Positions 45,965 through 50,201 are shown, counted from the stretch's first letter. The stretch is 64,000 bases of DNA from Escherichia coli (GCF_041886205.1 NZ_CP169029.1); one strand, 5' to 3'. Made by a program: numbers and translations. The notes: generated by a model from the sequence alone, not told the origin.

Positions 45965-47074
<1,110 letters not shown>

Positions 47075-47137
47075 TGGGCGGTATTCTGAAACGGCGATTG
47101 TCGTGAGAACAGAATGGTTGCACCAGAATACAGATAT

Positions 47138-47167
47138 AAAAAAACCGACATGACAGTCGGTTTTTTT
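47138..47167. terminator. Bidirectional intrinsic terminator (selU on plus, candidate sRNA on minus)
   Basis: A7-CCGAC-ATGACA-GTCGG-T7: hairpin flanked by an A-run and a T-run, so it works on either strand. Confidence 0.6.
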
Positions 47168-47225
47168 ATTTTTTCCGCCCAAGACTTGGTGGTTCCGGGC
47201 AGAAATGAAACAGTCCTCATCTAGC
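47140..47225 (-). ncRNA. Candidate antisense antitoxin sRNA (about 86 nt) of a type I toxin-antitoxin pair
   Basis: Transcript inferred from the promoter at 47232..47260 to the terminator at 47138..47167. Its 5' end (reverse complement of 47207..47225) is complementary to 47393..47411 upstream of the toxin ORF, about 19 bp including 2 G-U pairs. Confidence 0.5.
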
Positions 47226-47231
47226 AAGTGA

Positions 47232-47260
47232 ATTATAAGTCAGGATGCCTCCATATTCAA
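47232..47260 (-). promoter_or_regulatory. Near-consensus sigma70 promoter driving the candidate sRNA
   Basis: On the minus strand: TTGAAT, 17-nt spacer, TATAAT (perfect -10), oriented away from the toxin ORF. Confidence 0.6.
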
Positions 47261-47485
47261 ACAGCTATGTTGGCGATACAATCCCGACGCTAGTAGTGAT
47301 ACTGCCTCAAGGGATTACCGCAGTGCGGAAAAGTACTTTTAAGTCCTGGTCAGGATACAGGTGGTGCTGATTCTGGTGCTCTAATTTGGAGAGAGGCAGT
47401 CCTCATCTAGCACATGAAGAAAATCATAGTTACAGGCAACGTAAGGGTAAGCTGTGATTGTCTTTCTCCCTTAAGGGAGCAACGG

Positions 47486-47569
47486 ATGAAAACTTTTCTC
47501 GATAAAGTTCTCATCGTTCTTAAGGCGCTAATCGCGCTGCTGGAACTGATCCGTCAGTTTATTGAATAA
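47486..47569 (+). CDS. Candidate type I toxin, 27-aa hydrophobic peptide (DinQ/ZorO/TisB-like)
   Basis: ATG preceded by AAGGGAG with 7-nt spacing; product MKTFLDKVLIVLKALIALLELIRQFIE is a single amphipathic helix closely resembling DinQ as I remember it (shared ALIALLELIR); followed by a hairpin terminator. Below the ORF-track size cutoff. Confidence 0.6.
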   Translation: MKTFLDKVLIVLKALIALLELIRQFIE

Positions 47570-47589
47570 CTGAGGAAACGTAGCTAAGG

Positions 47590-47615
47590 CCGAAGGTTTA
47601 CCACCTTCGGTCTTT
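47590..47615 (+). terminator. Intrinsic terminator after the toxin ORF
   Basis: CCGAAGGT-TTACC-ACCTTCGG 8-bp stem followed by TCTTT. Confidence 0.5.
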
Positions 47616-47641
47616 AAAAAAACCGACATGACAGTTGGTTT
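47616..47641. repeat. Second copy of the A7-CCGACATGACAGTYGG hairpin (direct repeat of 47138..47163)
   Basis: AAAAAAACCGACATGACAGTTGGTTT matches 47138..47163 at 25 of 26 positions; the two copies bracket the toxin/sRNA module. Confidence 0.5.
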
Positions 47642-47672
47642 CATATTTATTGCCAAAATGCACACTGTTCAT

Positions 47673-47770
<98 letters not shown>

Positions 47771-47786
47771 AATCTAACACCTGTCA

Positions 47787-50201
47787 TCACCCCGCAAACT
47801 GCCTGAACAGCGCCTTACCCTTAACCAGTCTCGCGCCCAGCCAGCCGCCGAAAAGCGACAGCAGCAGCGCACCGCTGCACGGCAGAACAATCCACAATCG
47901 CCAGTCTGGCTCCCACGGGAAATCAAACACTTTCGCCTGCAACACTGCCAGTGCCGTTTCCGCACCAATTGCGGCCACCAGGCCGGAAACAAACCCAAGC
48001 ATGGCGAACTCACACCACAATGTCGTGCGCAGCAGTTTTTTCCCCGCACCGAGTGTGCGCCATACCACCAGCTCCTGATGACGCTGGCGCATTCCCACCT
48101 GCACCTGTGCCAGCAACAGCAACATACCGCAGGCGGTGACCAGCACCACCATCACCTCCAGCGCCCGACTTACCTGCTCCAGCACCTGACCGACCTGTTT
48201 TAAAATCGCGCCAATATCTAACAGGCTAATGGTCGGGAACTGGCGGTTGAGTTGCGTCAACATGCCGTTGCCATTCTCCCAGCGGAAACTGGTAAGCCAG
48301 CTCTGCGGTTGCCCGTCTAATGCCCCTTCCGGGAAAATAAAATAGAAATTAGGCCGCAGACTTTCCCAGTCCACTTTGCGCAGGCTGGTCACTTTAGCGC
48401 GGAACTCCTGGGTATCGCCCATAAAAGTCACGGTATCACCGAGGGCAACGTTTAAGCGTTTCGCCAGCCCCTCTTCCATCGACACTTCATCGGCTTTTGG
48501 CGGCCAGTTACCGGCGACAATCGGATTATGATCGGGCCGCGTATTTTGCCAGGTAAGATTGAGTTCGCGATTAAGCGCCTCATCTTCATTACCTTCTGTC
48601 GGCTTATCGTTAATCGCCGTCAGCCGCGCCCGCACTACCGGATAAAATGATTCCGGGACTATATGATGTTCCGCGAGGAACGCTTTTAGCGGTGCTACCT
48701 GTTCTGTGGCGATGTTAATTAAAAAGTAGTTCGGGCTTTCTGGCGGTAGCTGCTGCTGCCAGCGGTCGAGCAGATCGCCACGCAATACCAGCAACAGCGC
48801 CAGCAGCATAAAGGAGAGCGAAAATGCCGAAAGCTGACTTAACGTTGACCACGGCTGACGTAACAGGCGGCTAACCGCCAGGCGCAGAGGCAGCGATTTC
48901 AGCGTCATGCGGCGAAGTACATTCAGCAGCATCCAGCCCAGCACACCGCACAGCAAAGCCAGTACTACCGCGCCAGCCAGCACCGCCCAAAGCAGCATGC
49001 TGCCACCCATTAATCCGGCGAGCAGCAGCACAACCACCACACTGACAATCGGCAGATAAAACTTCAGCGGCCAGACGTTCGCTACCACATCATTACGTAA
49101 TACGCGTAAAGGCTGCGTTGCCAGCAACAAGCGATATGGTCGTAGCCCCACCAGCAGCGAGATGACCGTCATGGTGCCCAGCGCCCACAACCACGGCCAG
49201 AGGCTGGCTGGCGGTAGTGCAGCAGGCAGAACGGGCTTGAGCAGCACCATCAACACGTTTTCGAACAACAGGCCTATGGCCCCACCGGTAACGGCTGAAA
49301 GCGCCAGCACCATCAACCACTGACCGACGATTAGCTTACGCAGTTGCGCTCGCCCTGCCCCCAGCGTTTTGAGGATCGCCACCAGATCGTAGCGACTGCG
49401 ACAGTAATGATTCATCGCCACCGCCACCGCTGCCACTGCCAGCAGCAAGGTCAGAAGCGCCGAAAGCAGCAGGAACTGCTGCGAGCGTTCCATCGATCGC
49501 CCCAGCGCGCCTTCGTCCTGTTCCAGACCGTACCAGCGTTGTTCGGGTTTAAGCTGGGGTAACAACCATTTCTCATAGCCGTCGAGCTGGTTCTCGTTGC
49601 CGCCGAATTTATAACGCCAGGTGACCCGACTCCCCGGCTGCACGGCTCCGGTTTTATCGACATCCGCCAGATTCATCATCAGACGCGGAGCCATCTGGAA
49701 GGGGTTAAAACCAGAATCCGGTTCCTGAATCACTTCTCCGGCAATCCGCAAGGTGGCATCGCCCACGTCGATGGTGTCGCCTGTTTTCAGGTTAAGCAGC
49801 GCCATCAGGCGTGGGGCCAGCAATACGCTGCCCGCCTGCGGTTTCAGGCCAGGGGGATTAGTTTGCAGATCGCCATACATCGGGTAGATATCATCCACCG
49901 CTTTGACGTTCGCCAGCTGCGGTGTGTCGCCTGCAAATGTCATGGTGGCGAAAGTCAGCTGCTTGCCGACTTTCAGGCCGCGCTTTTGCGCTTCCTCCAG
50001 CCACGCTTGCGGCACTTCGCGCGAACTGCGCAACGCCCGATCGCCCGCCATAAACTCACGGCTTTGCTGGCTTAAGCCCTTCTCCATGCGATCGCTGATA
50101 TTGCCCAGCGCCAGCACGCAGGCCACCGCCAGGCTTAGCGCCAGCCAGACAATTAATAGCGACGGCGAACGCCATTCGCGCCAGAACCAACGTGCAATCA
50201 T
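47787..50201 (-). CDS. ybbP: ABC transporter permease YbbP (FtsX-like, LolE family)
   Basis: 804-aa ORF with duplicated FtsX-like permease architecture; 4-bp overlap with upstream ybbA. Confidence 0.85.
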   Translation of the reverse strand: MIARWFWREWRSPSLLIVWLALSLAVACVLALGNISDRMEKGLSQQSREFMAGDRALRSSREVPQAWLEEAQKRGLKVGKQLTFATMTFAGDTPQLANVKAVDDIYPMYGDLQTNPPGLKPQAGSVLLAPRLMALLNLKTGDTIDVGDATLRIAGEVIQEPDSGFNPFQMAPRLMMNLADVDKTGAVQPGSRVTWRYKFGGNENQLDGYEKWLLPQLKPEQRWYGLEQDEGALGRSMERSQQFLLLSALLTLLLAVAAVAVAMNHYCRSRYDLVAILKTLGAGRAQLRKLIVGQWLMVLALSAVTGGAIGLLFENVLMVLLKPVLPAALPPASLWPWLWALGTMTVISLLVGLRPYRLLLATQPLRVLRNDVVANVWPLKFYLPIVSVVVVLLLAGLMGGSMLLWAVLAGAVVLALLCGVLGWMLLNVLRRMTLKSLPLRLAVSRLLRQPWSTLSQLSAFSLSFMLLALLLVLRGDLLDRWQQQLPPESPNYFLINIATEQVAPLKAFLAEHHIVPESFYPVVRARLTAINDKPTEGNEDEALNRELNLTWQNTRPDHNPIVAGNWPPKADEVSMEEGLAKRLNVALGDTVTFMGDTQEFRAKVTSLRKVDWESLRPNFYFIFPEGALDGQPQSWLTSFRWENGNGMLTQLNRQFPTISLLDIGAILKQVGQVLEQVSRALEVMVVLVTACGMLLLLAQVQVGMRQRHQELVVWRTLGAGKKLLRTTLWCEFAMLGFVSGLVAAIGAETALAVLQAKVFDFPWEPDWRLWIVLPCSGALLLSLFGGWLGARLVKGKALFRQFAG

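Follow-up and report, generated by a model that had tools for sequence, protein, structure and literature searches.

The 51-codon reading frame of a dinQ-like toxin locus in Escherichia coli is very probably a fortuitous extension within the 5′ leader

The locus between mnmH and ybbP

The window analysed here is a stretch of 64,000 nucleotides of Escherichia coli DNA (GCF_041886205.1, NZ_CP169029.1), and the locus of interest lies in it between mnmH (selU/ybbB, which ends at 47074) and ybbP (47787-50201, minus strand). RefSeq annotates only a 27-residue peptide at this site (47486-47569, WP_349808740.1), under the name 'damage-inducible type I toxin DinQ', and the entry is found in approximately 1,300 complete E. 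coli genomes. With the 711-nt intergenic sequence as a query and a coverage of at least 80%, matches were obtained in 1,314 of 5,426 complete E. coli genomes. The same query also gave hundreds of thousands of partial BLAST hits, which are accounted for by REP/BIME-like palindromes at 47667-47750, in the gap from the toxin terminator to ybbP; the matches of these palindromes to the Rfam models naRNA4 and ES036 fell below the gathering score.

A preliminary description of this DNA had drawn attention to an ATG upstream of the RefSeq start, and had proposed that it opens an alternative toxin frame whose start abuts the target of an sRNA. The frame itself is as described: ATG 47414-47416 and ATG 47486-47488 are in frame, 72 nt apart, and no stop occurs until TAA 47567-47569. 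The ORF 47414..47569 encodes 51 amino acids plus a stop (MKKIIVTGNVRVSCDCLSPLREQRMKTFLDKVLIVLKALIALLELIRQFIE, composed of MKKIIVTGNVRVSCDCLSPLREQR-MKTFLDKVLIVLKALIALLELIRQFIE), and above ATG 47414 the frame is closed two codons up by an in-frame TAG (47408-47410). The features of the locus, each with the evidence on which it rests, are as follows.

47136..47225, minus strand: AgrB-like antitoxin sRNA gene, putative, 5′ end complementary to 47393-47411 (Rfam RF02891 AgrB, terminator scan, direct repeat)
47232..47260, minus strand: predicted sigma-70 promoter of the sRNA, TTGAAT-17-TATAAT (10/12 matches, promoter scan)
47277..47289, plus strand: predicted toxin promoter -10, TACAAT (47277-47282), and start G47289 (aligned to K-12 dinQ)
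47289..47308, plus strand: predicted 5′ arm of the S1 'lock' stem, sequence 1 equivalent (MFE fold of 47289-47616, a/a′ covariation, model of PMC5066626)
47337, plus strand: position aligned to the K-12 dinQ +44 processing site, U44 (alignment inference only)
47347..47376, plus strand: SL2 equivalent with the AAGTCCTGG...GGTGGTGC block (folds; conserved in all family members and the tisB leader)
47388..47412, plus strand: sequence 2 (GGAGAGAGG...) and predicted sRNA target, 47393-47412 (direct repeat, duplex)
47414..47485, plus strand: upstream AUG (47414-47416) and 24-codon in-frame 'extension', judged to be non-coding leader
47423..47458, plus strand: SL4 stem-loop within the 'extension', arms 47423-47430 and 47451-47458 (RNAalifold, pair counts)
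47456..47479, plus strand: sequence 3 (47456-47469) and SD-sequestering hairpin CUCCC-UUAA-GGGAG, 47466-47479 (palindrome, folds, covariation)
47486..47569, plus strand: 27-residue DinQ-family toxin ORF MKTFLDKVLIVLKALIALLELIRQFIE (NF041472, RefSeq WP_349808740.1, codon-position variation)
47586..47614, plus strand: terminator hairpin of the toxin mRNA (fold; conserved GGCC...GGCCTTTAA block)

The 27-residue peptide matched the NCBIfam model NF041472 (toxin_DinQ) over residues 5-26 with 40.9 bits (cut-off 30), and its score against the NCBIfam DqlB model, 24.5, was under the cut-off of 35; the same NCBIfam scan matched the 24-residue extension to no family. Neither peptide matched in a local copy of Pfam-A, database relatives of the toxin carry a precomputed PF28061 (DinQ) match, and a full-text literature search with the peptide strings found nothing. 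The leader matched the family profile with E = 8e-92 in nhmmer, a value obtained with the window sequence among the seven used to build that profile. K-12 has the rhsD island at the mnmH-ybbP site, with no trace of the module, and its own dinQ/agrAB sits between arsR and gor (PMC3567139; PMC5066626). Taken together, the different site, the DinQ and AgrB matches and the presence of dinQ/agrAB elsewhere in K-12 identify the locus, at the level of sequence, as accessory and as the second representative of the dinQ/agrB family known from E. coli, a 'dql' in the sense of Kristiansen et al. 2016 (PMC5066626), and every feature of the DinQ/Dql-AgrB family that was tested was found here.

The LexA box of K-12 dinQ (TACTGTATGATTATCCAGT) has no counterpart in the family alignment, and no LexA operator of the form CTG-N10-CAG is present in 47150-47420, so that SOS control of the locus was considered and rejected. 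For this reason the locus is better named dql than dinQ; it is probably not SOS-induced, and the 'damage-inducible' of the RefSeq label, taken over from the model, is probably wrong for the paralogue.

The sRNA gene was matched by RF02891 at 47224..47136 on the minus strand with 53.6 bits (gathering score 40, E = 5.9e-8), an intrinsic terminator was found at 47136-47169 by the terminator scan, and the -35 block of the predicted promoter is conserved across the family alignment. The 16 nt of CAGTCCTCATCTAGCA are found twice without a mismatch and in the same orientation, at 47211-47226 and 47397-47412, and with G-U pairs the complementarity of the sRNA reaches 47393 and, past one mismatch, approximately 47388 (20-25 nt in total). 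The pairing site that had been predicted at 47393..47411 is confirmed by this repeat, the upstream copy of which lies inside the AgrB-matching minus-strand gene; the duplex, as had also been claimed, ends at C47411, 2 nt before AUG 47414, when judged by homology with K-12 agrB. Among the 20 aligned family sequences, 17 repeat their own version of the target 180-245 nt further upstream (430 nt in the case of K-12 agrB), and in the alignment the CUA(A/G)C(A) column is invariably where the target stops. By this comparison the abutment of the sRNA site on the AUG is a boundary common to the family, fixed by the 5′ end of the sRNA and by the base of S1, and it does not depend on the presence of an AUG behind it.

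A further stretch of the toxin ORF, AGTTCTCATC (47506-47515), matches the sRNA target core AGTCCTCATC at 9 of 10 positions and could form 10 bp with one G-U; the surrounding block, ATCATCGTTCT, is invariant in DinQ-type family members and may represent either a second sRNA contact or merely coding conservation. Between the near-identical decamers AGTCCTCATC (47398) and AGTTCTCATC (47506), a 108-nt deletion (window 47398-47505) has occurred in another copy (L132, NZ_OZ392464.1), which takes out the sRNA target, the upstream AUG, SL4, the SD and the first 6-7 toxin codons and leaves the sRNA gene intact. The exact junction is found in 138 of 1,325 locus-bearing complete E. coli genomes (approximately 10%), in which the toxin has consequently been inactivated and the antitoxin sRNA orphaned; RefSeq still annotates a 25-aa 'DinQ' on this allele. 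The peptides closest to the window toxin, MKAFID(T/I)AIIVLKALIALLELIRAFLK, are encoded by two tandem dql copies in Photorhabdus caribbeanensis (L017, 4744-5107 and 5653-6010, reverse-strand coordinates). No AgrB-type target repeat was found within 520 nt upstream of either copy, and their antitoxin may be located elsewhere or be of a different kind. Finally, a 40-nt direct repeat with 83% identity (47137-47176 and 47615-47654), which includes the terminator hairpin AAAAAAACCGACATGACAG(T/C)..., flanks the 478-bp sRNA and toxin module in the window and looks like the footprint of a cassette insertion or duplication.

Leader architecture and related systems

The leader was compared in an alignment of 20 sequences, which comprised the window locus and an E. 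coli variant, two K-12-type dinQ genes, plasmid dinQ and dqlB, and loci from Salmonella, Yersiniaceae, Enterobacter, Klebsiella, Pantoea, Photorhabdus, Haemophilus and a metagenome. Family members were picked by nhmmer. The contig pattern AAGTCCTGGN{8,14}GGTGGTGC proved too loose, as it matched at least 120 stretches, mostly by chance and in unrelated phyla, with approximately 12 Enterobacterales loci among the matches listed. Our indexing of the K-12 sequence reproduced all published coordinates. The conserved blocks of the leader are the -10, GTTAG at +1, AAGTCCTGG...GGTGGTGC, GTGCTCT, GGAG, CTAAC, GACAGGCAGTGTAAGAGTAAG, CTCC...GGAG and ACGG-ATG/GTG, and the leader could be aligned block by block with K-12 dinQ and plasmid dqlB. 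The predicted -10 and G47289 align with the -10 and mapped +1 of K-12 dinQ, and the 5′ ends of the mRNA are probably at approximately 47289 and 47337, both upstream of 47414; by this homology AUG 47414 would be on the mRNA but most likely unused. The toxin promoter has a poor -35, which overlaps the -35 of the sRNA promoter on the opposite strand (TTGAAT/ATTCAA).

A structural model is available for K-12 dinQ, in which sequence 1 pairs with sequence 2 (S1) in the +1 RNA while sequences 3 and 4 shut the SD; once 44 nt have been removed, sequence 3 becomes the partner of sequence 2, which leaves the SD open; and agrB, on binding G88-A119, recaptures sequence 2, recloses the SD and directs RNase III cleavage (PMC5066626). 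SHAPE and compensatory mutants support this switch, and a standby mechanism was left possible (PMC5066626). At the window locus, a fold of the predicted +1 RNA (47289-47616) forms S1 from 47289-47308 and 47393-47411 and closes the 3:4 hairpin over the SD (AAGGGAG, 47473-47479), and a fold begun at approximately 47337 forms a 2:3 duplex of 47388-47401 with 47456-47469. According to these folds the four elements can form mutually exclusive 1:2, 2:3 and 3:4 pairings, with small energy differences. The a/a′ helix, in which the first five nucleotides pair with 47407-47411, is complete (5 of 5 pairs) in each of the 19 sequences that extend to the 5′ end, and compensatory changes are seen, from U-A to C-G at the window locus and from A-U to G-C in two others.

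The likeness to dinQ that the preliminary description had noted stands insofar as the locus is a dinQ/agrB paralogue with the layout and sRNA-site position described, but not in the toxin role given to the alternative start. Both genes encode a 27-aa toxin with an ALIALLELIR core, behind a 5′ UTR of approximately 195 nt that can be aligned by blocks (SL2, sequence 2, SL4, sequences 3 and 4, ACGG-start), and in both a divergent AgrB-type sRNA uses its 5′ end to pair with a target that stops at the CUA(A/G)C base of S1. They also share a longer in-frame ORF with upstream ATG(s), regarded as a start by the annotation or by the preliminary description. However, the window locus has one sRNA gene where K-12 has two (agrA and agrB), an ATG in place of the GTG start, no LexA box, unlike K-12 dinQ, a different chromosomal site, and 16 nt of exact complementarity with G-U extensions as opposed to approximately 32-34 nt. 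Moreover, the K-12 homologue of AUG 47414 (AUG122) is out of frame, and the in-frame ATGs of K-12 (129, 150 and 162) are at other positions. The dql genes dqlA and dqlB, including the DqlB-agrB pair of pOXA-48, have the same leader architecture and cognate sRNA arrangement (PMC5066626; PMC12365149), and for pOXA-48 DqlB both toxicity and base-pairing-dependent repression by agrB were demonstrated with compensatory mutations (PMC12365149). DqlB peptides, however, have 31 aa with a 4-residue insertion, whereas the window toxin has 27 and falls below the DqlB cut-off, and DqlB leaders have an in-frame stop 10-13 codons upstream, whereas the window leader is open to ATG 47414.

A likeness to tisAB had also been suggested, and it is borne out for the leader, which shares sequence blocks with tisB, though not for an alternative-toxin function. 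In tisB/istR-1, as would be the case at the window locus, the upstream ORF of the leader (tisA) is untranslated, an inert primary transcript is activated by 5′ processing (near +42 in tisB) and the sRNA binds far upstream of the SD. The systems differ in that TisB belongs to another family (29 aa), in that tisA is not an in-frame extension of tisB, unlike the window ORF, and in that tisB relies on a ribosome standby site, whereas SHAPE evidence for dinQ indicates an SD-opening switch. Both leaders carry the blocks AAGTCCTGG...GGTGGTGC and ACAGGCAG.

In tisB leaders, too, AAGTCCTGG-N-GGTGGTGC is followed by ACAGGCAG, both upstream of the SD (683-707 and 798-805 in K-12 tisB, L144), and TisB-type leaders with these blocks were seen at four further loci (L029, L100, L091 and L052); the peptides of L029 and L100 pass the NCBIfam TisB cut-off and that of L091 is just below it. 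The same blocks precede a 29-aa toxin at L021, MDTLTQKLIVLIAVLELLLALLRLIDLLK, which we take to be ZorO-like and for which NCBIfam has no model. The dinQ-family nucleotide profile finds the tisB- and ZorO-like leaders at E = 1e-19 to 3e-6, which suggests that the leader scaffold of dinQ, tisB and zorO is of common ancestry. According to a 2024 paper, no relationship of zor to dinQ had been proposed so far (PMC11264685).

The upstream AUG and the 51-codon frame

The two starts differ in their translation signals, as had been stated. ATG 47486 has a strong SD, AAGGGAG, at a spacing of 5-6 nt and with an anti-SD pairing of -7.6 kcal/mol, and ATG 47414 has no usable one, the best anti-SD pairing upstream of it being GAGG (-5.8 kcal/mol) at a spacing of 16 nt, where it is non-functional as an SD. 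The nested layout is itself no rarer than chance predicts. In 20,000 dinucleotide-preserving shuffles of the 197-nt leader, an in-frame ATG ahead of the first in-frame stop was found in 19.6%, and one at least 20 codons upstream in 4.5%.

Of the 20 family sequences, 12 have an AUG directly behind the sRNA site, at a distance of 71-77 nt from the toxin start, but its frame varies. The distance of 72 nt, which places it in frame 0 with an open frame, occurs in this E. coli lineage only; nine sequences are in frame +2 (74, 71 or 77 nt), including the nearest relative (L135), which shares the exact CUAGCACAUGAAG motif at a distance of 74 nt; K-12 dinQ is in frame +1 (73 nt, AUG122, a 5-codon ORF); and in two dqlB plasmids the AUG is in frame 0 (75 nt) with a stop after 15 codons. 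Across the family the ORFs opened by this AUG span 1-25 codons. Further members lack the ATG, and their frame is closed by a stop 5-13 codons before the toxin start. In two relatives (L133 and L134), on the other hand, the toxin frame stays open over the preceding 82 and 32 codons, although their leaders contain no AUG. As the spacing is divisible by three and free of stops in one lineage only, the 51-codon ORF appears to be fortuitous.

The pattern of substitution points in the same direction. SL4, which lies in the extension, has changed on both sides at 7 of its 8 stem pairs. When the 15 pairs of SL4 and of the SD hairpin are counted together, pairing is preserved in 91.9% of cells (31-52% if the partners are slid), and 36 cells are compensatory where shuffles give 8.9; none of 500 shuffles was as high. 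Counts of minority bases at codon positions 1, 2 and 3 are 71, 77 and 73 in the extension and 65, 23 and 111 in the toxin ORF, and in the closest subfamily 24, 27 and 27 as opposed to 8, 0 and 29. At the protein level the extension does resemble that of Salmonella-type relatives (VTGNVRV...PLREQR compared with VTGNVRV...PIREKR), but the similarity falls on the invariant SL4 loop and the SD region and is thus nucleotide conservation. On this comparative evidence the extension has the evolutionary pattern of paired RNA, and not that of codons.

Within E. coli, the extension is identical over 91 nt in 1,080 of 1,135 copies, and of the 55 genomes in which it varies, 3 were read. The variants are S18A, S18G, the combination R11G+V12G+C16W+S18A, and one synonymous change that also weakens the SD; the toxin peptide is unaltered in those three genomes, as well as in S18G and in the variant with four changes. 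There are too few sites for a formal test of the dN/dS type, so that this polymorphism serves as supporting evidence only. AUG 47414 and the open frame are intact in every intact E. coli copy read.

Experiments on K-12 dinQ bear on the same question. Its 49-aa ORF has three in-frame ATGs, yet the product is the 27-aa DinQ V, made from a GTG start behind an SD (PMC3567139), and among its +1, +44 and +125 transcripts +44 alone was translated in vitro, to a product of DinQ V size (PMC3567139). The proposal of an alternative 51-residue toxin with an sRNA-controlled start is therefore unsupported: its frame is unconserved, SL4 covaries, no codon signal is seen, and K-12 dinQ leaves its in-frame upstream ATGs unused, the +44 transcript yielding the 27-aa peptide alone (PMC3567139). 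There is a likeness to hok/mok/sok, in that the sRNA target adjoins the start of an upstream frame running into the toxin gene, but translation of hok depends on mok, which is conserved and has a ribosome-binding site of its own, whereas the window AUG has no SD and its frame and extent are unconserved. A conserved mok-like leader ORF was accordingly rejected, its frame and length being unconserved and an SD lacking, and an upstream start with its own ribosome-binding site and a conserved frame, of the hok/mok or N-extended type, was not found at the locus.

Proposed regulation and alternative readings

The homology of the locus, its anatomy, the covariation in its leader and the lack of a coding signal in the extension are direct observations, and they lead us to consider it very probable that the 51-residue frame is a fortuitous extension in a known dql 5′ UTR and that the toxin is the 27-aa peptide made from AUG 47486. 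Under this interpretation, the mRNA of the DinQ-like (dql) type I toxin would span 47289-47614, and its AgrB-like antitoxin sRNA would be encoded by 47136-47225 of the minus strand. AUG 47414 would be part of the 5′ UTR, 2 nt past the closing helix of S1, which coincides with the 3′ edge of the sRNA target, and would be followed by the conserved SL4 and then by the SD-sequestering hairpin. In the primary transcript, S1 (47289-47308 with 47393-47411) would mask the sRNA site and the SD would be shut in its hairpin. Processing of the 5′ end near 47337 would then free sequence 2 (47388-47401) to pair with sequence 3 (47456-47469), by which the SD opens, and the sRNA, on binding 47393-47412, would recapture sequence 2, allow the SD hairpin to shut again and probably trigger cleavage by RNase III. 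Regulation most likely follows the dinQ model, by analogy with the paralogue, from which the 5′ ends, the processing, the structural switch, the RNase III cleavage and the non-use of the upstream AUG are all carried over.

One alternative is that the single-stranded stretch at and behind the sRNA site, with the frequent AUG in it, serves ribosomes for standby or docking, or begins a short leader ORF whose translation aids the opening of the SD hairpin, on the model of the tisB standby site or of hok/mok coupling. The sRNA would compete for this stretch, and the frame would be incidental. Such a role could account for the recurrence of an AUG within a few nucleotides of the sRNA-site edge in 12 of 20 sequences, despite the variability of the next 10-15 nt, and may be consistent with the predicted effect of processing, which lowers the opening energy of the 28 nt around 47414 from 9.6 (+1 RNA) to 5.1 kcal/mol and barely shifts that of the 47486/SD region (17.3 to 16.6 kcal/mol). 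The dinQ authors leave a standby mechanism possible (PMC5066626), and the leader has blocks in common with tisB, whose mRNA uses such a site. However, the AUG is missing in 8 of the 20 sequences and has no SD here, and the leader ORFs of 1-25 codons vary in length and end point, which argues that coupling to the SD is not conserved. Moreover, in the same ensemble calculation K-12 dinQ, whose switch is established by SHAPE and compensatory mutants, changes only from 14.3 to 12.7 kcal/mol, and as this change is equally small, opening energies do not discriminate between a switch and a standby site. We regard this reading as very improbable. The claim that the recurrent AUG is a 30S docking or standby triplet, or a leader-ORF start, occluded by the sRNA, and that at this locus it additionally gives a 51-residue isoform, we likewise consider very improbable.

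Very unlikely too, in our view, is that AUG 47414 is a genuine weak start, used without an SD on processed, sRNA-free mRNA to give an N-extended isoform of 51 residues; the sRNA would block initiation directly, because its duplex stops 2 nt short of this start. The AUG does lie in an A-rich context of predicted accessibility, AUG-AAG-AAA-AUC, and with opening cheaper at 47414 than at 47486, SD-independent initiation stays conceivable there. The AUG and open ORF are present in all intact E. coli copies read, a natural variant (P0002) that has lost ATG 47486 by a 3-nt deletion retains the long ORF alone, and the N-extended peptides DinQ II-IV are toxic if artificially expressed, so that an extension need not inactivate the toxin. 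These points are set against an open frame that is conserved in no other lineage, an extension with no codon-position signal and mostly non-synonymous polymorphism, an ATG with no SD, the non-use in vitro of the in-frame upstream ATGs on native K-12 transcripts, and a layout within chance expectation.

The preferred reading, that of a fortuitous extension, bears chiefly on annotation. A nested in-frame start is a known property of dinQ, and over-long annotation of dql genes has already been stated in the literature, where 14 dql genes were published with a remark on over-long N-termini (PMC5066626). At the present locus, a database cluster of 51 sequences carries the 51-aa call, and the comparative evidence supports the 27-aa call of RefSeq over it. 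For Salmonella, Yersiniaceae and Enterobacter loci (P0014, P0017 and P0022), RefSeq gives 31 aa from an ATGGAG start that overlaps the SD (MEKR followed by V/MK...); homology with the K-12 GTG start, which was established by experiment, places the true start probably 4 codons downstream, so that over-extension would also be present in curated annotation.

If the upstream AUG were used, there would be a second toxic product and a direct mechanism in which the sRNA blocks a start, although nothing found favours this, and a functional recurrent AUG would add a tisB- or mok-like layer to the published structural-switch model of dinQ. The main value of the finding is nevertheless a caution, namely that gene callers and human readers alike tend to stretch the ORFs of type I toxins to the first in-frame ATG. 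In addition, the locus could be used as a natural, non-SOS paralogue in which to test the dinQ switch model.
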